A stretch of 64,000 nt of DNA, from positions 5,664,001-5,728,000 of the forward strand of contig CAVUSO010000001.1 of NCBI GenBank assembly GCA_963744145.1, read 5' to 3'. A program made the translations under genes and the position numbers. Source of the stretch: an uncultured cyanobacterium. GTDB taxonomy: Bacteria > Cyanobacteriota > Cyanobacteriia > Cyanobacteriales > CAWUOF01. This document shows, piece by piece, positions 449 through 64,000 of this stretch. The notes under the pieces are model-generated. The model did no database searches. It was not told the DNA's origin and worked only from the letters and a program-made list of their open reading frames with translations. Position 1 is the stretch's first letter. Every line of letters begins with the position of its first letter.

Positions 449-579
449 AGCATCAGATCATCCTGATCGCTAATAAGCCTGCAATTTTATCGTAAATTGG
501 GATAAAATTAGAAAACTCTACTGATGAATAAATCAATCTTAACAAGGGAGGATTATAATATGTCATCAAATGCTATCCG

Positions 580-810
580 CTAAACACGCTTTCAGATCTG
601 GACAACCAGTACATAAAGTGTAGAGATGGCCAGTCTAAGTTCTTGATTGGACTACGTTACTTGGGTCATGGCACCTGCGAGTGCTTTCCAGCTTTTAGCT
701 CTGCCGTTCAGTTTTAAACATTCCTATTTAGCTAAGAAAGTGAACTGAACATGACAAGCCTAAGTAACATTGACGAGGAAAAAATTACCTGAGAAATCAG
801 AGTTTCAACT
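580..810 (+). ncRNA. omegaRNA/HEARO-like scaffold of IscB (boundaries approximate)
   Basis: Non-coding stretch directly upstream of iscB with the typical look of these scaffolds (CCAGTCTAAG..CTACGTT..GGTCATGGCACC..CCAG..CTCTG..AACATTGACGAGG). Confidence 0.65.
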
Positions 811-2085
811 ATGTCTAACTTTGTTTTTGTGATCGACACCAACAAGCGCCCTATTAATCCTGTTCATCCAGCACAAGCTCGATTGTTGTTGAATCAGGGG
901 AAAGCTGCTATATTTCGGAGATTTCCATTTACGATCATCTTAAAAACTGCATCAATACAAGTAACAAAACCGATTCAGTTAAAAATAGATCCAGGTTCTC
1001 AAATAACTGGTCTGGCATTAGTATCTAATGATGCAGTTATTTGGGGTGCTGAATTAACTCACCGTGGTCAAGCAATTAAAGCTAATCTTGAGTCTCGGCG
1101 AGCGCTGCGTCGTAATCGGCGGAACCGCAAAACTCGTTATCGCCAATTACGGTTTCTAAATAGAACTCGTTGCAAAGGTTGGTTAGCTCCCAGCATGGAA
1201 CACCGAGTAGAAACTACTCTAACCTGGGTAAATAGGCTAAGGAAATTTGCACCAATTAGTTCTATTTCCCAAGAACTGGTCAGGTTTGATCTGCAACGGT
1301 TAGAGGCTCCTGAAATATCGGGCATTGAGTACCAACAAGGAGAGCTACAAGGCTACGAAGTTCGCGAATACTTACTGAATAAGTGGGGCAGAAAATGTGT
1401 TTATTGTGGAGCAGAAAATACGCCCCTAGAGATTGAACATATTTTGGCTAAAAGCAGAGGTGGGACGGATAGAGTTAGCAATCTTACCCTAGCTTGTCAT
1501 ACTTGTAATCAGAGAAAAGGTAATCAGTCAATTGAGAAATTTCTCCACAACAAACCAGATGTTTTGAGACGGGTTCTAGCACAAGCCAAAGCACCATTAA
1601 AAGACGCTGCTGCTGTCAACTCTACCCGATGGGCATTATTCAACCGACTCAAGGAAACCGGATTACCAGTTGAAACCGGAACTGGTGGCAGAACCAAATT
1701 TAACCGCGTTAAGTTTGGGATTGAAAAGCGTCACTATCTAGATGCGGCTTGTGTGGGCGTAGTTGAGAAATTAACTTTGAAAACTACTAAGCCCTTACTG
1801 ATTACTGCTAAGGGTTGGGGTACTCGCCAGATGTCTACTACCAACCAATATGGTTTTCCTATAAGACATCGCACCAGACAGAAAGCTTTTTTTGGGTTTC
1901 AAACTGGGGATATAGTTCGCGCTACTCTACCAAAAGGAAAATTCGCAGGAATACATATCGGGCGCTTAACTGTTCGTGCCACAGGTGTTTTTGAAATGGT
2001 GACAGTCAAGGGCAAAGTTAGCCCTGTCAGAGCTAAATACTGCCAAATAGTTCATCGGGTTGATGGATACAATTATGCCGCATAA
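811..2085 (+). CDS. iscB: RNA-guided endonuclease IscB (RRXRR, split RuvC, HNH)
   Basis: PLMP-like N-terminus (KRPINPVHPAQARLLL), RuvC-I IDPGS, Arg-rich bridge helix RRALRRNRRNRKTRYR, QELVRFD, HNH CVYCG..EIEH..GG..N..C..CN, RuvC-III HYLDAAC. Confidence 0.95.
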   Translation: MSNFVFVIDTNKRPINPVHPAQARLLLNQGKAAIFRRFPFTIILKTASIQVTKPIQLKIDPGSQITGLALVSNDAVIWGAELTHRGQAIKANLESRRALRRNRRNRKTRYRQLRFLNRTRCKGWLAPSMEHRVETTLTWVNRLRKFAPISSISQELVRFDLQRLEAPEISGIEYQQGELQGYEVREYLLNKWGRKCVYCGAENTPLEIEHILAKSRGGTDRVSNLTLACHTCNQRKGNQSIEKFLHNKPDVLRRVLAQAKAPLKDAAAVNSTRWALFNRLKETGLPVETGTGGRTKFNRVKFGIEKRHYLDAACVGVVEKLTLKTTKPLLITAKGWGTRQMSTTNQYGFPIRHRTRQKAFFGFQTGDIVRATLPKGKFAGIHIGRLTVRATGVFEMVTVKGKVSPVRAKYCQIVHRVDGYNYAA

Positions 2086-29491: not shown

Positions 29492-29535
29492 ATCTAGAAT
29501 TCATCAGCAATAATCAATAATTGAGGAAATGCAAA

Positions 29536-30639
29536 ATGGCAAAAAAACCAACTGCAAAAAGTACCAAAGCGGAAATTTTAGAAGCTTATGAAAAAGCTCA
29601 AAAAGAAAAATTAGAGTTGGAAACAGAACTCAAGCAACTGCAAAAACAAAAAGCAAATGTCAGTATTGAAAAACCATCAGAAGTGAAAGAAGTGAAGGAA
29701 GTGAAGGAAGTGAAAACCCCTATGGCTCAACCAGCGATCGCCCAGAAAAAAATGGCTCATACGATTGAAAGTCTTGCCCAATTACAATTAGGATTTGGTA
29801 GTTCTATTAGTGAGTTGTCAGAACAACTTACTTCGGAAGCTTCTCAATTACAAGACCTCACTAAATCTGTAGCAGAGGAAATTAAACAGTTAGAGGAATT
29901 GCATGATCTTAAGCAAATTAATGATGATACCTTGGATACTTTAATTGAACAATATGAAAATCAGGCTAAAACATCTGAAGAAGAAAGTAATTTAAGACGA
30001 GAAACCTTAGACCAAGAGTTAATTCAATTACGCAAAGCTTGGGAGAAAGAACAGGAAGAATATAAGCGTGCTATTAAAGAACGTCATGAGAATCAACAGA
30101 AAGCAATGCACCGCAATAGTGAGGAATATCATTATGATTTAGAACTGCAACGGAAATTAAGTGATGAAACCTATGAACAGACGAAAAAAACCCTAGAGCA
30201 AGAATTAGCAGAGATTCGCAAGGAACAGGAAAAAGTTTGGGAAGAACGAGAAAAAGCGATCGCGGAACGAGAACAGCTTTTCCATGAGTCTAAAAATAAA
30301 GTCGAAGCATTTCCCAAAGAATTAGAAGCAGCAATTAAAAAAGCGAAGGAAGAAGGTAAGGGAATTGCTACTTACCAAGCTAAAGTTAAAGCTGATTTAT
30401 TAGCTAAAGAAGTGGAAGGTCAAAAACGTTTCTATGAATTAAGATTGCAATCATTGGAAGAGACAATTAAAAGTCAACAAAATCGCATTCAAAGTTTATC
30501 TAGTCAATTAGAATCAACCTTGAAGCAAGTCCAAGATTTGGCAGTAAAAGCAATCGAAGGTGCTTCCAGCGTTACTTCATCTCAGGTATTTAAAGAAATT
30601 GCGATCGAACAAGCTAAGGGAATTCAAAAAAATAAATAG
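29536..30639 (+). CDS. Long coiled-coil protein (paralog B)
   Basis: Paralog of the upstream gene; (EVK)4 microrepeat. Confidence 0.75.
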   Translation: MAKKPTAKSTKAEILEAYEKAQKEKLELETELKQLQKQKANVSIEKPSEVKEVKEVKEVKTPMAQPAIAQKKMAHTIESLAQLQLGFGSSISELSEQLTSEASQLQDLTKSVAEEIKQLEELHDLKQINDDTLDTLIEQYENQAKTSEEESNLRRETLDQELIQLRKAWEKEQEEYKRAIKERHENQQKAMHRNSEEYHYDLELQRKLSDETYEQTKKTLEQELAEIRKEQEKVWEEREKAIAEREQLFHESKNKVEAFPKELEAAIKKAKEEGKGIATYQAKVKADLLAKEVEGQKRFYELRLQSLEETIKSQQNRIQSLSSQLESTLKQVQDLAVKAIEGASSVTSSQVFKEIAIEQAKGIQKNK

Positions 30640-30768: not shown

Positions 30769-31245
30769 ATGACCATCTATTTTTATAAAGTTGACGATCC
30801 TTTTGGCTGCTTTTCTAATTTTTCTCCCCATGGGATTAGTTTACATGGTCAATATTGGCCAACAGTAGAACATTATTATCAATCACAAAAATTTGTCAAT
30901 ACGATTGATGATTCACTCATCAAAGTTATCCAGGTTGCGAAAACTCCAGTAGAAGCTACAGTTTTAGGACGTGATTGTCGTCGTTCAGTACGTTCTGATT
31001 GGGACTTAGTCAAACAACCGATTATGAGAGAAGCTGTCTTAACCAAATTCTTGACTCATCTCGACATTCAAGCGATTCTGCTGTCTACAGGAGATGAATT
31101 GATCGTGGAAAATTCGCCCACTGATTATTATTGGGGATGTGGCTTAAATCAAACTGGGAAAAATTATTTGGGTAAACTTTTGGTGAGTATTCGTGAACAA
31201 ATCCGTCATCAATTAGATGCCCAATCTGATCGGATTTATAATTAA
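30769..31245 (+). CDS. NADAR (YbiA-like) family protein
   Basis: FSNFS, WPTVEHYYQSQKF, ENSPTDYYWG, GKNYLGKLL. Confidence 0.92.
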   Translation: MTIYFYKVDDPFGCFSNFSPHGISLHGQYWPTVEHYYQSQKFVNTIDDSLIKVIQVAKTPVEATVLGRDCRRSVRSDWDLVKQPIMREAVLTKFLTHLDIQAILLSTGDELIVENSPTDYYWGCGLNQTGKNYLGKLLVSIREQIRHQLDAQSDRIYN

Positions 31246-52236: not shown

Positions 52237-52899
52237 TTATTTTTGATGGGATGCTAATCGATCAGCTAAACGAGTTGTTTCGGGAAGTCTATATTTTGGG
52301 GTACAACTAATAACATAATTTATGGCAGTTGTCAAGCTAATGCGATGACCACTAGAGACATAAATGGGTTTAACTCCCATTCGAGTTCGCAAAACTGCAC
52401 CAATTGTCTCACCTTGATCTTGCATTGGTTGCCAATCACCTCGATGATTTCCGACCTGATCATATTTACCAATTAACCAAGACTTAGCTACTCCAATGGT
52501 GGGGACATCTGCTAACAGACCAAGGTGACAAGCAATCCCAAAACGACTGGGATGGGCAATTCCCTGACCATCACATAAAATTAAATTAGGAATAGTTGAA
52601 AGTTTGGCTAAAGCATCAAGCACTGCAGGTGCTTCGCGAAAAGAAAGAAAACCAGGAATGTAAGGAAAAGTTGTGGGACGATAAGCGATCGCCCGATCTA
52701 CTAATTGTAAATCAGGAAAACTTAATACTACCACAGCAGCTTTAGCCACATCAGGAGTTTCATAGCCCACATCAACTCCAGCTACATATTCTACTGTTTC
52801 TAGTTGATCGGAGATAATTACTTCATGGGCTAGTTCTTGTTGGATCGCGATCGCTGCGGTAACCGTAGTGGGCCAAGAGTGCCGAGGGTGAATTCTCAT
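52237..52899 (-). CDS. nfi: Endonuclease V
   Basis: [37 protein letters not shown]. Confidence 0.95.
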
Positions 52900-60975: not shown

Positions 60976-61006
60976 AAAATACCTGTGTATTGCAGTGGAA
61001 TTTATA

Positions 61007-61151
61007 CCCCGCACAAGTTGACAAAGCTTTTGCACTGGCGAGTTACCGTTACTCTACAGACCCTTTTTGAGGTGGATCTGGTAGGAGTCGAACCTACAAT
61101 TCCCGCTGTTCAAGCGGATTGTGTGTAAGCTTTATCTGTCAGGGTGCGGGG
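61007..61151 (-). ncRNA. YrlA-like Y RNA candidate (permuted tRNA-like module in a terminal stem)
   Basis: CCCCGCAC/GTGCGGGG ends pair; inside: hairpin, T arm GTAGG-TTCGACT-CCTAC, acceptor CAGATCC-loop-GGGTCTG, D arm GAGT-AACGGTA-ACTC. Confidence 0.7.
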
Positions 61152-61165
61152 AAAAATTATTACCT

Positions 61166-61289
61166 TAGACCTCTTGCAAAAGTCATGTTGATCAATTTAC
61201 TGGACAGGCAAGATGCCTGTCCCACAACCAAAAAAAACTCTTGTGGGACAGGCATCTTGCCTGTCCTAGTTATTTTTGCAAGAAGTCTA
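61166..61289. repeat. MITE/REP-like element inserted in the tRNA operon
   Basis: Same family as 14073-14196. Confidence 0.85.
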
Positions 61290-61312
61290 TTCCAATAGTG
61301 AAAGAAAAATAG

Positions 61313-61395
61313 AGGAAGATGGAGGAATCGAACCCCTACAGAAACCCGTACCCTGGTTTTCAAGACCAGTCGCTGTCCATTCAGCGGCATCTTCC
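61313..61395 (-). tRNA. tRNA-Ser(TGA)
   Basis: CTGGT-CT TGA AA-ACCAG; long variable arm; GGTTCGATTCC. Confidence 0.85.
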
Positions 61396-61402
61396 CTTGA
61401 GG

Positions 61403-61478
61403 GGTGTCTGACGGGACTCAAACCCGCTATTAACTAGCTTCACAGACTAGCGTCTCGATCGCTTCGACTTCAAACACC
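61403..61478 (-). tRNA. tRNA-His(GTG)
   Basis: CTAGT-CT GTG AA-GCTAG; G-1:C73; atypical T loop TTTGAGT. Confidence 0.8.
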
Positions 61479-61483
61479 ATCAG

Positions 61484-61556
61484 TGGATCTGGCGAGGGTT
61501 GAACTCGCAACCTCCTGTTTGCAAGACAGGCATTCTCCCATTAGAACTACAGACCC
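61484..61556 (-). tRNA. tRNA-Ala(TGC)
   Basis: CCTGT-CT TGC AA-ACAGG; G3:U70. Confidence 0.9.
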
Positions 61557-61565
61557 AAACCAAGA

Positions 61566-61639
61566 CGGGAATGGTAGGAATTGAACCCACAACATCCGAG
61601 GTAGAAACTCGGCGCTCTATCCGATTGAGCTACATTCCC
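61566..61639 (-). tRNA. tRNA-Arg(TCT)
   Basis: CCGAG-TT TCT AC-CTCGG; full cloverleaf. Confidence 0.9.
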
Positions 61640-61665
61640 ATCAACAATTGTGAAAATTTTTCAGT

Positions 61666-61910
61666 TCAGGCGATCGCGTAAGGGCGTGCAAGTTAGCAGA
61701 GCATTTTGCGTTTTCTCAGCTACTAGAGGGACTCCGCCGATGAGTTATTACACACTCTTTCAAGGATGGCTACTTCTAAGCCTACCTATCGGGTTCTTTG
61801 TACTCCCCATTGGCAAACGCGACCCGATATTTGATAGGGTTACTATTCCTCTCGTACTTAGTATGTAAGCTCTATCCTATTAGGGCACGCTGAGGACGCG
61901 ATCGCACTGA
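61666..61910 (-). ncRNA. Structured RNA with a sarcin-ricin loop and a 23S rRNA H43/H44 (L11-binding) mimic
   Basis: Ends pair; AGTACGAGAGGAA at 61846-61858; 56-nt GTPase-centre-like domain at 61737-61792. Confidence 0.75.
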
Positions 61911-61967
61911 TTACCAAACATGATCAAACGAATTTAACACACCTCCTTAAATCAAATTCAATTCACA

Positions 61968-62039
<72 letters not shown>

Positions 62040-62045
62040 TTTAAA

Positions 62046-62116
62046 AGCGGATAACGAGAGTCGAACTCGTACCTAGAATTTGGAAGAATCAGATGCTACC
62101 GCTACACCATATCCGC
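62046..62116 (-). tRNA. tRNA-Gly(TCC), weak anticodon stem
   Basis: GCGGATA/TATCCGC acceptor; CT TCC AA loop; TGATT/ATTCT stem has mismatches. Confidence 0.7.
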
Positions 62117-62139
62117 CGATTAAAATGATCAGATTTGGT

Positions 62140-62985
62140 TTATTTATCTGGCCGAAATCGCCGATCGAACTCTGTAAATATCTTTCTTTCTTCGCTTAGA
62201 TCCAGAACTGAAAATAGGATGCTTTTGAATCTTCCCCAAAACTGTCCTTTTGTTAATAAAAAATCCGCAAACATTTGAGCGACCATTGCCGGATCGTTTC
62301 TGAATACTCCACATCCCCAAGCTCCTAAAACTAAAGCATCACAATGATGGTAAGCAGCTAAACTTAACAACTTAGCACCGCGAACATAGAGAACTTCGCG
62401 AATTTTTCCTTGAGCCGGAGATGGTCTTTTTCTAATTTCACCAGCGTTAGGAGCTGGACTAGTGAAAAAATCCACTTGATGGGGGATTGACAGTAAAGTT
62501 CCATCATCTTTGCGAAAAATTGGACAACTTGGTGAATGAATAATATGATCGGAATATAAAAGTGAGGAAGTAGACCGATGAAAATCATAATATTTAGGAC
62601 ATTTCAATAGACTTTGGTAAAGTCCAGAACTACGTGCTAAACTCTCTTCTTGTGCTTGAGCACCTCTCATAAATCCACCACCAGGGTTTTTAGCAGAAGC
62701 AAAATTGAGAACACCAATTTTGGCAAATTTTTGAGTTTTCGTCATCATTTCTGCTCCGCTCAATGTCGTCTCATTCCTGATGGTAAATTCAGTATTAGTG
62801 AAGGTGGCAGCACTAGCGAGAACTTCGGTTTGGATTTGCTCAAGATCAGCAGGATCGTAACATTTTGTTTGAGCGACACAGAATGCTAAATCTGGCGCTA
62901 TATCCACCCGTTCGCTTTGAGGGGATTGGTAATAACCTGCTGCTAGTATATTGAGAGTATCTTGCGCGATCGCAACTCGCTTCAT
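62140..62985 (-). CDS. TIGR02452 family (DUF2263, PARG-like macrodomain) protein
   Basis: VLNFASAKNPGGGF..GAQAQEESL, LVLGAWGCGVF; start moved to MKRVAI after the AGGAG RBS because the longer ORF overlaps tRNA-Thr. Confidence 0.88.
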   Translation of the reverse strand: MKRVAIAQDTLNILAAGYYQSPQSERVDIAPDLAFCVAQTKCYDPADLEQIQTEVLASAATFTNTEFTIRNETTLSGAEMMTKTQKFAKIGVLNFASAKNPGGGFMRGAQAQEESLARSSGLYQSLLKCPKYYDFHRSTSSLLYSDHIIHSPSCPIFRKDDGTLLSIPHQVDFFTSPAPNAGEIRKRPSPAQGKIREVLYVRGAKLLSLAAYHHCDALVLGAWGCGVFRNDPAMVAQMFADFLLTKGQFWGRFKSILFSVLDLSEERKIFTEFDRRFRPDK

Positions 62986-63027
62986 GTGTTTAAAACTCCT
63001 GATACATATCTCCTTTTTTAAAGTCCA

Positions 63028-63099
63028 AGCAGGAGGCGAGATTTGAACTCGCATAGGCAGTTTACAAGACTGCTGTGTTGCCATTGACACCACACCTGC
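63028..63099 (-). tRNA. tRNA-Thr(TGT)
   Basis: GCAGT-CT TGT AA-ACTGC. Confidence 0.85.
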
Positions 63100-63107
63100 A
63101 TGATCAA

Positions 63108-63176
63108 ATACCCCTTGGATTTGAACCTTCCTAAACGAGCTGACTAGACTCGTGCGTGACCACTACTCTAGCCCGC
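63108..63176 (-). pseudogene. Degenerate tRNA (loop CT AGT CA, Thr-like; acceptor does not pair)
   Basis: D-loop AGTGGTC, anticodon stem ACGAG/CTCGT and GGTTCAAATCC are present; the acceptor is broken. Confidence 0.5.
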
Positions 63177-63178
63177 TA

Positions 63179-63260
63179 TGGGTCGAGCTGGATTTGAACC
63201 AGCAAAGCGTTAAGCCGCGGTTTTACAGACCGTCACCTACACCAATAGGTGGGCCGACCC
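63179..63260 (-). tRNA. tRNA-Tyr(GTA)
   Basis: CGGT-CT GTA AA-ACCG; long variable arm. Confidence 0.85.
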
Positions 63261-63271
63261 AGAAAAAAACA

Positions 63272-63344
63272 CGGCCCCAACGGGATTTGAACCCGTGTCT
63301 TCTGATCGAAATTCAGAAATCCTTAACCACTAGACGATGGGGCC
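63272..63344 (-). tRNA. tRNA-Glu(TTC)
   Basis: TCTGA-AT TTC GA-TCAGA; GGCCCCA/TGGGGCC acceptor. Confidence 0.85.
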
Positions 63345-63347
63345 TTT

Positions 63348-63423
63348 TGGCAAGGGAGTCGAGCTTTGAACTCGAAGTCTTCGGTTTTGGAGACCGATAT
63401 GTTGCCAGTTACACCACTCCCCC
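63348..63423 (-). tRNA. tRNA-Trp(CCA), encoded 3' CCA
   Basis: TCGGT-CT CCA AA-ACCGA. Confidence 0.88.
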
Positions 63424-63426
63424 CTA

Positions 63427-63501
63427 TGGTCGCAGCGGTGGGATTTGAACCCACATTTGCTCGGTTATGAGCCGAGGACTTTACCGTTAAGTTACACTGC
63501 A
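63427..63501 (-). tRNA. tRNA with CAT anticodon (Met-type; subtype not resolved), encoded 3' CCA
   Basis: CTCGG-CT CAT AA-CCGAG. Confidence 0.8.
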
Positions 63502-63538
63502 ATCTCTTTTAACTGTTTTCCCAACCTAATCTAGCTCA

Positions 63539-63611
63539 CGAGGCTGACGGGTTTCGATCCCGCTACCTTCTGTTCGACAGACAGACGCTCTCCCAATTGA
63601 GCTACAGCCCC
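63539..63611 (-). tRNA. tRNA-Asp(GTC)
   Basis: TCTGT-CT GTC GA-ACAGA; atypical T loop ATCGAAA. Confidence 0.85.
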
Positions 63612-63753
63612 ATTTAGATCAGGTTTACTTTTTGGGAATTTGGACTTGTTGGCGGTCTACCCAATAGGGCATTACCTGGGTCGGTGATTGCTCGCTTTTG
63701 AGTGAAAACCGCCTTTGTCCAAAAGTGTGTGATATGAAGAATTATTTATTTAG

Positions 63754-63809
63754 TTTTCAAGGTTCAGTTTCTGGCTAGGGTGAAGCTTTTCGGTTCTTTC
63801 CCTCTCGCC
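63754..63809 (-). promoter_or_regulatory. boxB-like hairpin followed by rrn-type boxA (GAACCTTGAAAA)
   Basis: Hairpin at 63773-63809, then GAACCTTGAAAA at 63754-63765 in the operon leader. Confidence 0.6.
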
Positions 63810-63819
63810 CTATATTTAC

Positions 63820-63848
63820 ATACTACAATCATACTACAAAATTGTCAA
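63820..63848 (-). promoter_or_regulatory. Sigma70-type promoter of the tRNA operon with overlapping TGTAGTAT direct repeats
   Basis: TTGACA-17 bp-TAGTAT; two TGTAGTAT copies 11 bp apart. Confidence 0.8.
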
Positions 63849-64000
63849 GGGTTTAGACAAAAAAATTTTTGATTGGCAGCAAAGAGGGCGGAAACCTTAT
63901 GTATAGGTGGGTTTAAGGGTTTGGTTGGTAGTTAGGTTATGGTAGGTGACATGGGTTCGCTGAGGCGATCGCTGGCCAATGGAATGATGATGAAATTATA

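Follow-up and report, generated by a model that had tools for sequence, protein, structure and literature searches.

We analysed a 64,000-nucleotide (nt) stretch of DNA, hereafter the window, from an uncultured cyanobacterium (assembly GCA_963744145.1, contig CAVUSO010000001.1, positions 5,664,001-5,728,000, forward strand). It holds an operon of tRNA genes, 10 of them found by ARAGORN and 2 by Rfam only, all on the minus strand. Within this operon, at 61666-61910 (minus strand, as are all positions given below for the operon and the element), lies an RNA element that joins likenesses of two parts of 23S ribosomal RNA (rRNA), the sarcin-ricin loop (SRL) and the GTPase-associated centre (GAC). 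Directly 5' of the element are tRNA-Gly(UCC) and tRNA-Val(UAC) (61968-62117, with tRNA-Val at 61968-62039; ARAGORN and the Rfam tRNA model), and directly 3' are tRNA-Arg(UCU) (61564-61640), tRNA-Ala(UGC), an Rfam-only tRNA and tRNA-Ser(UGA), together spanning 61312-61640 (ARAGORN and Rfam). A preliminary description, made from the sequence, had reported paired ends, an SRL hairpin and a GAC copy here, and all three are present. The best explanation of the element is a trans-acting, structured non-coding RNA that belongs to a widespread cyanobacterial family and consists of a closing scaffold and a display module.

The full extent of the element, defined from the sequence, the minimum free energy (MFE) fold and the duplex energy of its ends, is closed by an outer stem, P0, in which tcagtgcgatcgcgt (61910-61896) pairs with acgcgatcgcctga (61679-61666). 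In the window copy the P0 duplex has an energy of -24.4 kcal/mol versus -8.1 kcal/mol for shuffles (RNAduplex). At the core of P0, each arm has one copy (61670-61677 and 61898-61905) of the cyanobacterial palindrome HIP1, GCGATCGC, of which the window contains 60 in all; since any two HIP1 copies pair by construction, this pairing needs caution. Inside P0 is the conserved core (61684-61890), made of P1 (GCGTGC at 61890-61885 with GCACGC at 61689-61684), the loop boxes CCYAAY and AACUU, P2 (about 61875-61869 with 61702-61696) and UACAUAC. The SRL mimic, corresponding to H95 of 23S, occupies 61841-61863, where a TACTA/TAGTA stem surrounds AGTACGAGAGGAA (= AGUACGAGAGGAA). It is followed by a hairpin, P3 (61822-61840; alignment columns 110-129), for which a 23S counterpart was not identified, and by P4 (61820-61816 with 61712-61708; columns 131-135/241-246). 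Next comes a lower helix resembling H42, whose 5' strand GGGGAGUACAAAGAAC lies within 61793-61820 and whose 3' strand, beginning CGGAGUCCCUCU, lies within 61708-61736; local alignment to cyanobacterial 23S and pair counts place its pairs at columns 144-146/226-228 and 150-151/221-222. The stretch 61660-61915 folds with an MFE of -82.7 kcal/mol (z = -3.44), and none of 200 shuffles folds as well.

The GAC mimic (61737-61792, CCGA...TCGG) comprises the top of H42, H43 with the A1067 loop and H44 with the A1095 loop, and is equivalent to E. coli 23S 1052-1107. When 61641-61967 was searched with cmscan, this segment aligned without gaps to positions 1093-1148 of the LSU_rRNA_bacteria model (45.6 bits, E = 8.7e-13), which is below the gathering score of 50 (RF02541); a copy from Kovacikia reaches 55.1 bits on the same model, limited to positions 1081-1156. 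The gapless alignment with E. coli that the preliminary description gave holds: the GAC copy is identical at 42 of 56 positions to E. coli rrlH, at 45 of 56 to the 23S of Allocoleopsis and at 44 of 56 to that of Scytonema (reference loci L007, L004 and L005, all confirmed as rRNA). The same alignment bears out the differences it had listed, namely CCAG/CUGG closing pairs that have become CCGA/UCGG, U1058-A1080 replaced by G-C, and the C1072.(C1092-G1099) triple replaced by U.(U-A), with the pairs of H43 and H44 and the bases A1067 and A1095 kept and an A at 1061. The 1072/1092/1099 triple is a known covariation in 23S. The flanks had been said to resemble H42, and the likeness to cyanobacterial 23S does extend into the H42 5' strand (GGGAGTRCA..GA.A.CC).

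The SRL 12-mer AGTACGAGAGGA equals E. coli 2654-2665, is exact in all four reference 23S sequences and has one match in the whole window. By chance, 0.09 matches with up to one mismatch would be expected, and one match is reached in 9 of 100 shuffles. The SRL by itself is thus only modestly unlikely in the window, and the case against randomness rests on the combination of SRL and GAC and on conservation elsewhere. A 9-mer shared by the window copy and E. coli 23S 3' of the SRL, TGCCAATGG, was treated as chance, as it is not kept in the family. The two parts are arranged differently from 23S, as had been pointed out: there they are about 1.5 kb apart with the GAC first, whereas in the element the SRL comes first, 63 nt separate the two, and the non-rRNA helices P2, P3 and P4 serve as joints with P1 as closure. 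On the ribosome the SRL and H42-H44 are adjacent and together form the binding site of translation factors; H42 is the L10 site, and H42-H44 make up the GAC, which binds L11 and L10. PIN-domain toxins cut the SRL. Synthetic 'ribosome-in-pieces' oligonucleotides are a close comparison for the SRL and GAC copies.

No Rfam family was found on the element in a scan of the whole window at gathering scores or of 61000-64000 at E <= 10, and these scans gave no match to GOLLD, ROOL, a leader or YrlA; the LSU piece was seen in the narrow scan alone. The window scan found no 23S gene in the window. Whether the two rRNA-like parts alone would match had been raised as a question. No Rfam family indeed covers the whole element; of the two parts, it is the GAC piece that matches, and model positions 1093-1148 are the only ones involved.

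We then define the family by a scan of species-representative genomes for an H43 loop motif lying 45-75 nt 3' of an SRL motif, a pattern that the 23S order cannot match and that fixes the SRL 12-mer and positions 1063-1076. The scan returned at least 120 loci. The element is an unannotated gene in at least 120 public genomes. Among the matches listed, 116 of 120 titles are cyanobacterial, two read 'uncultured bacterium', and one each is an Acidobacteriota and an Actinomycetota metagenome-assembled genome (MAG; L022 and L059, respectively). The last two are full copies in contigs binned as non-cyanobacterial; the L059 element is flanked by HIP1 sites, which makes mis-binned cyanobacterial contigs the likely cause, with horizontal transfer as the alternative. 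BLAST of plasmid records gave two full homologues, on Kovacikia pA and Dolichospermum pAfl69, neither near a tRNA, and the remaining matches were true 23S genes. BLAST found no match in E. coli genomes, no copy on the plasmids of PCC 7120 and no full copy of the element in phages. A profile built from 121 distinct copies recovers the core of the window element (61890-61684) with nhmmer at 187.2 bits (E = 1e-55).

We analysed covariation in the alignment of these 121 copies using a hand-checked structure of 44 pairs (P1, P2, the SRL stem, the P3 hairpin, P4, the H42-like helix, H43, the 1082-1086 pair and H44). Pairs are formed in 97.3% of the cells, compared with 92.3% in shuffles, none of 500 of which reaches the observed value, and with 33-50% when the partners are slid. 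Changes on both sides are seen in 25 of the 44 pairs, versus 12.0 in shuffles and 6-12 with slid partners. RNAalifold on its own proposes 43 pairs, 24 of them with compensatory changes. Both scaffold helices are well maintained (95.9% paired for P1 and 96.0% for P2, compensatory changes in both), and all six pairs of P3 and all four pairs at the top of H42 change on both sides. The 1058-1080 pair is GC in 89 copies, AU in 27 and UA in 3. The 1072.(1092-1099) triple is U.U-A in 112 copies, U.U-G in 4, C.C-G in 3 and C.U-A in 2; it co-varies in three copies, as all three C-G pairs go with C1072. The family-wide U1072.(U1092-A1099) is missing from the two cyanobacterial 23S references, which have C.(C-G). 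Among positions outside the search pattern, A1095 is kept in 119 of 121 copies, and A1088, G1091, A1098, C1100 and U1082 are each kept in all 121. RNAalifold had also paired TAC (columns 80-82) with GTA inside the SRL, and we replaced this by the SRL stem 84-86/106-108, which is placed by conservation, as no pair in it changes on both sides.

A profile search of the fetched DNA also revealed four truncated second copies (L013, L018, L036 and L048), about 1.7 kb upstream of the main copy. In these copies the promoter-like region is retained, bases of the SRL or the H43 loop are substituted and the 3' strands are gone, and three of the four fail the search pattern; loss of selection would be expected to leave copies in such a state. 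In many Nostoc copies, L012, L015 and L110 among them, P1 is directly followed on its 3' side by tandem heptamer repeats, AATTCGT. Candidate roles for these repeats are termination and processing, or they may merely belong to the Nostoc class of short tandem repeats.

The preliminary description had argued for a selected RNA, and the family bears this out through its compensatory changes and through characters absent from the two cyanobacterial 23S references. We consider it highly probable that the element is a real, selected RNA with rRNA mimicry. It had further been suggested that no family with this architecture is described: no family of Rfam 15 spans the entire element, and full-text searches of the literature found no description of such an RNA.

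We compared the surroundings of the element in 83 usable loci of more than 3 kb. The tRNA-operon setting noted at the outset is true for the window copy and a minority context across the family, as the element lies inside long same-strand tRNA arrays in 17 of the 83 loci and outside them in the other 66. In the 66 non-array loci the element is part of a cassette whose same-strand neighbours recur: a 477-amino-acid (aa) vWA protein (58/66), a 277-aa protein that we call c1 (60/66, just downstream of the element), an E1-like protein of the ThiF family (212 aa; 54/66), a 241-aa protein, c8 (27/66), and a full copy of ribosomal protein L7/L12 (14/66). The L7/L12 copy scores 106.8 bits with TIGR00855 (cutoff 84.4) and has both Pfam domains; no L10 or L11 copy was found. 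Leptolyngbya-type loci have extra genes, for endonuclease V, a CCA-type nucleotidyltransferase, DUF4291, NADAR, an RNase T-like exonuclease, Tpt1 and a GNAT. The array loci carry microbial PARG (5/17), an RNA ligase with a tRNA-binding domain (5/17), HNH (5/17), Macro (3/17) and NADAR (2/17).

The c1 family is large (835 representatives at E <= 1e-3, of which 253 remain at E <= 1e-30) and has an invariant C-terminal SSGICLSG, which may resemble the E2 active-site loop. We found no Pfam or NCBIfam family for c1, and among 15 members scanned 14 had no Pfam match and one had zinc ribbons only. A profile search of PDB sequences gave nothing significant for c1 (one match at E = 0.93), and there was no usable match in the Atlas. 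Its AlphaFold2 model is poor, with a predicted local distance difference test (pLDDT) score of 51, and Foldseek returned no match at E <= 0.001 for it; the best local match, an aIF1A-type OB fold (E = 0.057), is not relied on. Pfam and NCBIfam searches likewise found no family for c8, which gave none in further searches either, or for c22 (290 aa).

The cassettes also hold one or two 'tRNA genes' upstream of the element. In the cassette of locus L067 these lie at 185-256 and 1913-1986 and score 56.0 and 51.9 bits with the Rfam tRNA model; equivalents are present in 39 cassette loci. All start with (U)UACAUAC or UUCAUAC, and their anticodons differ at orthologous positions (CUA in 15, GAA and UGA in 10 each, UAA in 3, and others). 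Their frame is the same as that of the rRNA-like RNA: 5' ..GUGCCCYAAC, P2, UACAUAC, the body, P2' and AACUUGCAC.. 3'. The 5' scaffold box is found in 50 of 53 cassette tRNA-likes and both boxes in 27 of 53, and either box occurs in 2 of 434 ordinary array tRNAs; both boxes are present in 98 of the 121 rRNA-like copies. One tRNA-like unit (L067:1875-2020) stands out from its shuffles with z = -4.57. The cassette tRNA-likes are probably tRNA mimics of the Y-RNA type and not decoding tRNAs, and the closing scaffold that they share with the rRNA-like RNA points to a modular RNA of this type.

A third RNA on the P1/P2/UACAUAC scaffold was observed at L067:675-875 (plus strand), and it recurs at this position in other Nostoc-type loci. 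It has an MFE of -48.8 kcal/mol (z = -2.93) and an 18/19 match to 23S 1915-1933, around H69-H70 (blastn-short against four 23S references, E = 0.002), and it gave no Rfam match at E <= 10. Such 'other' scaffold units are seen in 17 loci, with the 10-mer CCTAAGGTAG in 14. The third RNA is possibly a second rRNA mimic.

The fold of the vWA protein suggests what the scaffold might bind. Its AlphaFold model, from a 41-sequence alignment, shows about 20 helices followed by a vWA fold (pLDDT 65.3). In a Foldseek search of the PDB with this model, the 11 best matches were Ro60, Rsr or TROVE structures, aligned over the full length with E-values of 9.5e-9 to 2e-7 and a probability of 1.00; they include Deinococcus radiodurans Rsr (2nvo, E = 9.5e-9), the Ro60 proteins of Xenopus and human, and a phage Ro60. 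The protein thus looks Ro60-like by its predicted fold, with a weak link in sequence.

To our knowledge, the known bacterial Y RNAs mimic tRNA, and the purpose of that mimicry is still open; the module studied here differs in that it mimics rRNA (SRL and GAC). The published account of bacterial Y RNAs describes several same-strand RNAs near a Ro60 gene, with paired ends and an inner mimic of a translation RNA (PMC4201824). In the same way as YrlA, YrlB and Yrn1 with Ro60 or Rsr, several same-strand RNAs lie here within a few kb of a protein that would combine a ring with a vWA domain (PMC4201824). The 5' and 3' ends pair into a stem around a large inner module, formed by P1 and P2 and, in the window, also by P0. 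The inner module imitates a translation RNA, tRNA-like in YrlA, and the cassettes also include tRNA-like RNAs. A link to RNA-repair genes and to stress induction, which is predicted for the element, is a further likeness to what that source describes (PMC4201824), and a difference is the link to PNPase, which was not seen here. From the genomic context, we lean slightly towards the element being a Y-RNA-like partner of the Ro60-like protein.

The window operon has a promoter at 63820-63848, with a -35 box TTGACA (63848-63843) and a tandem TGTAGTAT at 63838-63831 and 63827-63820. The two TGTAGTAT boxes are 3 nt apart, the second holds the -10 box TAGTAT, and the spacer from -35 to -10 is 17 nt. 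In published work on Anabaena sp. PCC 7120, TGTAGTAT over the -10 box TAGTAT is the site that the repressor TrcR protects at the trn operon, and TrcR represses this operon, rtcB, a TIGR02452 gene, GNATs, HNH genes and rsgA (PMC10272220, Table 1). A promoter needs no more than two tandem 9-nt repeats, covering the -10 box and the transcription start, to become inducible by translation inhibitors (PMC8421152). The window copy resembles the long tRNA arrays (L-arrays) and the trn operon of this strain in lying within a same-strand tRNA operon with tandem TGTAGTAT over the -10 box (PMC10272220, PMC8421152). It differs from them in its rRNA-like content, as a text look-up for '23S', 'sarcin' and 'L11' in the published accounts of the trn operon found none of these words.

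The window operon also has a gene of the same family as one listed in the TrcR regulon (PMC10272220), a microbial PARG/TIGR02452 open reading frame (ORF) at 62140-63093 (NCBIfam TIGR02452, 337.8 bits; tblastn). Its relatives match Pfam PARG_cat_microb at 4.6e-51, and its true start is probably downstream of tRNA-Thr. The operon ends with a terminator-like hairpin, GGACAGGCA-AGA-UGCCUGUCC (61225-61268), followed by a U-run 9 nt past the stem; the terminator scan reported this hairpin on the plus strand alone, and the 9-nt gap is beyond its criterion of 0-2 nt. The two Rfam-only stretches of the operon, at 61403-61477 (tRNA, 41.3 bits) and 63179-63261 (tRNA-Sec, 40.8 bits, with a gathering score of 47), are possibly degenerate or long-arm tRNAs.

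The same promoter box accompanies the family, in which most copies have a promoter of their own next to the Ro60-like, c1 and ThiF-like genes. In stand-alone copies the consensus TGTAGTATAnTGTATTATAnnAATATCCT stands immediately before P1. TGTAGTAT is found upstream of 65 of 123 copies, and in 38 of these its position relative to the SRL start is exactly -59. Across the 63 loci of more than 9 kb it is enriched in the -200 to 0 bin (41 occurrences, against at most 5 in any other bin). Given the TrcR-type promoter and the same-strand array, it is most likely, as judged from the sequence, that translational stress induces a single transcript of the window element, about 12 tRNAs and PARG, from which the element is freed when the flanking tRNAs are processed.

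Taken together, these observations lead us to propose, with a probability of about 0.5, that the element is a stress-induced modular RNA, similar to Y RNAs, with a display module that imitates the factor-binding centre of the ribosome. The scaffold (the optional P0, P1, the asymmetric loop CCYAAY/AACUU, P2 and UACAUAC) would hold the predicted Ro60-like protein, and the display module (H95 and H42-H44) would offer a free-standing surrogate of the factor-binding centre. Transcription would start from TrcR-type promoters, which by analogy with Anabaena would be de-repressed on translation inhibition. For the window copy we suppose a transfer to a short TrcR-type tRNA operon, from which the RNA would be set free as the tRNAs on either side are processed. 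Under translational stress the RNA might then act as a decoy or sentinel for agents that attack the centre, such as ADP-ribosylating, cleaving or depurinating toxins or thiopeptide-type antibiotics, and neighbouring enzymes would handle the damaged RNA. Alternatively, in the same frame, it could serve as a tether through which the Ro60-like particle acquires L11, L10/L12 or a translational GTPase.

A surrogate target is favoured because the cassette seems to assemble copies of classic targets into a panel, made up of the SRL/GAC RNA and of tRNA-likes whose anticodons drift, because array copies travel with removers of ADP-ribose and RNA ligases, and because a toxin that ADP-ribosylates 23S rRNA is known. 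The abstract of the report on this toxin (PMC8661411) is said to contain 'helix 44' and 'GTPase-associated center'. According to a published study, the 2'-OH of RNA is a site from which bacterial PARG takes off ADP-ribose (PMC11833690). The tether is supported by the L12 copy in 14 cassettes. Granted the Y-RNA-like partnership, our preference for the decoy or sentinel is thus close to evenly balanced, as the tether is about as likely.

A number of findings weigh against the proposal as a whole. The TM-scores (structural similarity) of the Ro60/TROVE matches are only 0.33-0.38 and the confidence of the model is moderate, none of 41 members of the vWA family matches the Pfam TROVE domain and one matches vWA_Ro60 (E = 0.028), and PDB sequences searched with a profile of this protein gave no match. 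The Ro60-recognition motif of bacterial Y RNAs, given as GNCGAAN0-1G in PMC4201824, does not occur in the 5' part of any of the 121 copies, and the RNA is about 200-245 nt long compared with 80-130 nt for the characterised Y RNAs in that source. The Rfam YrlA model (RF02553) gave no match at E <= 10 on the element or on the tRNA-likes; the sole YrlA match in L067 (21.8 bits, E = 0.36) lies away from the tRNA-likes. The second folded tRNA-like unit is not distinct from its shuffles (z = -0.87). P0 is more stable than its own shuffles by over 2 kcal/mol in just 60 of 121 copies, and the invariance of the SRL 12-mer and of 1063-1076 proves nothing, as the search pattern fixed them. A tblastn search of the window at E <= 1e-5 found no Ro60-like, c1, ThiF or L12 gene, and a Ro60-like gene is within 5 kb in 3 of 17 array loci. 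Finally, decoy and tether are so far indistinguishable.

An extended form of the proposal, speculative and in our view rather unlikely, is a stress-induced panel of baits in which the tRNA-likes, the SRL and GAC replica and possibly the third RNA sit on a Ro60-like ring with the E1-like enzyme and an unknown partner. If so, toxins, phage effectors and antibiotics would strike the baits, and the particle would absorb or report the attack as a decoy or guard of the ribosome at the level of RNA.

The lack of a Ro60-like gene in reach of the window copy and of 14 of the 17 array copies would also fit an RNA that acts without such a partner, in line with the preliminary description, which had proposed a decoy or sponge. 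Once freed from the tRNA operon, such an RNA would soak up thiopeptides, toxins directed at the SRL or GAC, L11, L10-L12 or translational GTPases. Conservation of the GAC and SRL determinants, the TrcR-type stress promoter and the ADP-ribose-removing enzymes of the arrays agree with this, and isolated GAC and SRL oligonucleotides reportedly bind L11, thiostrepton and EF-G in vitro (work attributed to the Draper laboratory and to Munishkin and Wool, 1997). However, 58 of the 66 non-array loci retain the Ro60-like gene on the strand of the element, and the conserved non-rRNA scaffold that the element shares with the tRNA-likes implies a common protein partner. In addition, a sponge for abundant ribosomal proteins or EF-G would demand a very high copy number. 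We see the free decoy as an unlikely explanation.

Somewhat less probable again is a mini-stalk, a particle of the RNA with the cell's own L10 and L11 and the cassette L7/L12 that would recruit a GTPase (EF-G, HflX, BipA, an RsgA-type enzyme or RelA are the candidates), trigger or trap it, and so lower or re-route translation under stress. The bona fide L7/L12 copy in 14 cassettes and the kept likeness to H42, the L10 site, would suit such a particle, as would the gene for a ribosome-associated GTPase in the TrcR regulon of Anabaena (PMC10272220, in Table 1). However, just 14 of the 66 cassettes have the L7/L12 copy, copies of L10 or L11 were not found, and c8 is without a detectable family.

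A cis-acting leader that regulates c1-ThiF through a ribosomal protein or factor, as in ribosomal-protein operons, would explain why c1 comes after the element in 60 of the 66 non-array loci and why the element ends about 50-100 nt before the c1 ORF in Leptolyngbya-type loci (L001, L022, L017 and L077). Such leaders, for example the L10 leader, do share with the element the copying of the rRNA site of a ribosomal protein in an RNA off the ribosome. They are, however, short cis-acting 5' untranslated regions with loose mimicry, whereas the element is a near-exact copy with an SRL in addition, lies between tRNA-Val and tRNA-Arg in the window and upstream of c1/ThiF elsewhere, and has no Rfam leader match. 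The array copies stand between tRNAs without c1 or ThiF, the distance to c1 varies from about 250 to 1040 nt in Nostoc loci, the ends are closed by P1/P0 as in a stand-alone RNA, and the scaffolded tRNA-likes are not followed by c1. A leader is therefore quite improbable. Least credible of all is a functionless rRNA pseudogene, recombination scrap or assembly chimera, since, although both modules are clearly 23S-derived and closest to cyanobacterial 23S (45/56) and decaying truncated copies exist, at least 120 loci share the same non-collinear architecture, with compensatory changes in 25 of 44 pairs, a derived U1072.(U1092-A1099) against C.(C-G) in the two references, and conserved promoter and synteny.

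We rate the combined SRL and GAC ribosome mimic as undescribed in the literature searched and, conditional on the Ro60 link, the element as a Y-RNA-like RNA with an rRNA-mimic module; if the Ro60 link fails, the RNA stands further from anything known. If the proposed Y-RNA-like reading is true, a Y-RNA-type scaffold can carry a near-exact replica of the factor-binding centre, assembled from rRNA pieces that are 1.5 kb apart and touch in space. The element would then offer a compact, independently folding natural model of the SRL-GAC site and a handle on the work of Ro60-type particles in translational stress. It would also be a candidate RNA-level layer of defence or regulation tied to the TrcR regulon, accessory tRNA arrays and erasers of RNA ADP-ribose.

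Two further observations concern the window itself. Genes for NADAR (30769-31245, plus strand) and endonuclease V (52237-52899, minus strand), 57% and 55-58% identical to the cassette versions, respectively, lie far from the element. At 562-788 (plus strand) is a full-length HEARO RNA (RF02033, 127 bits), followed by a 424-aa ORF (811-2085, plus strand), which is the usual pair of this RNA with an HNH endonuclease.

An H43-like copy of 23S, GGAAGGUAGGCUUAGAAGCAGCCAUCCUUUAAAGAGU, was seen in Pseudomonas phage pf16 (NC_041881.1, about 29520-29600; L128:2497-2578), where it matches LSU_rRNA_archaea with 20.2 bits (E = 3.3e-4). It lies on the same strand as the phage tRNA cluster, in an unannotated gap of 253 nt between tRNA-Asn and tRNA-Pro, and about 80 nt downstream is AGUAGAGAGGCA, which resembles the SRL with one base missing. 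This stretch may be an independent GAC mimic in a tRNA cluster.

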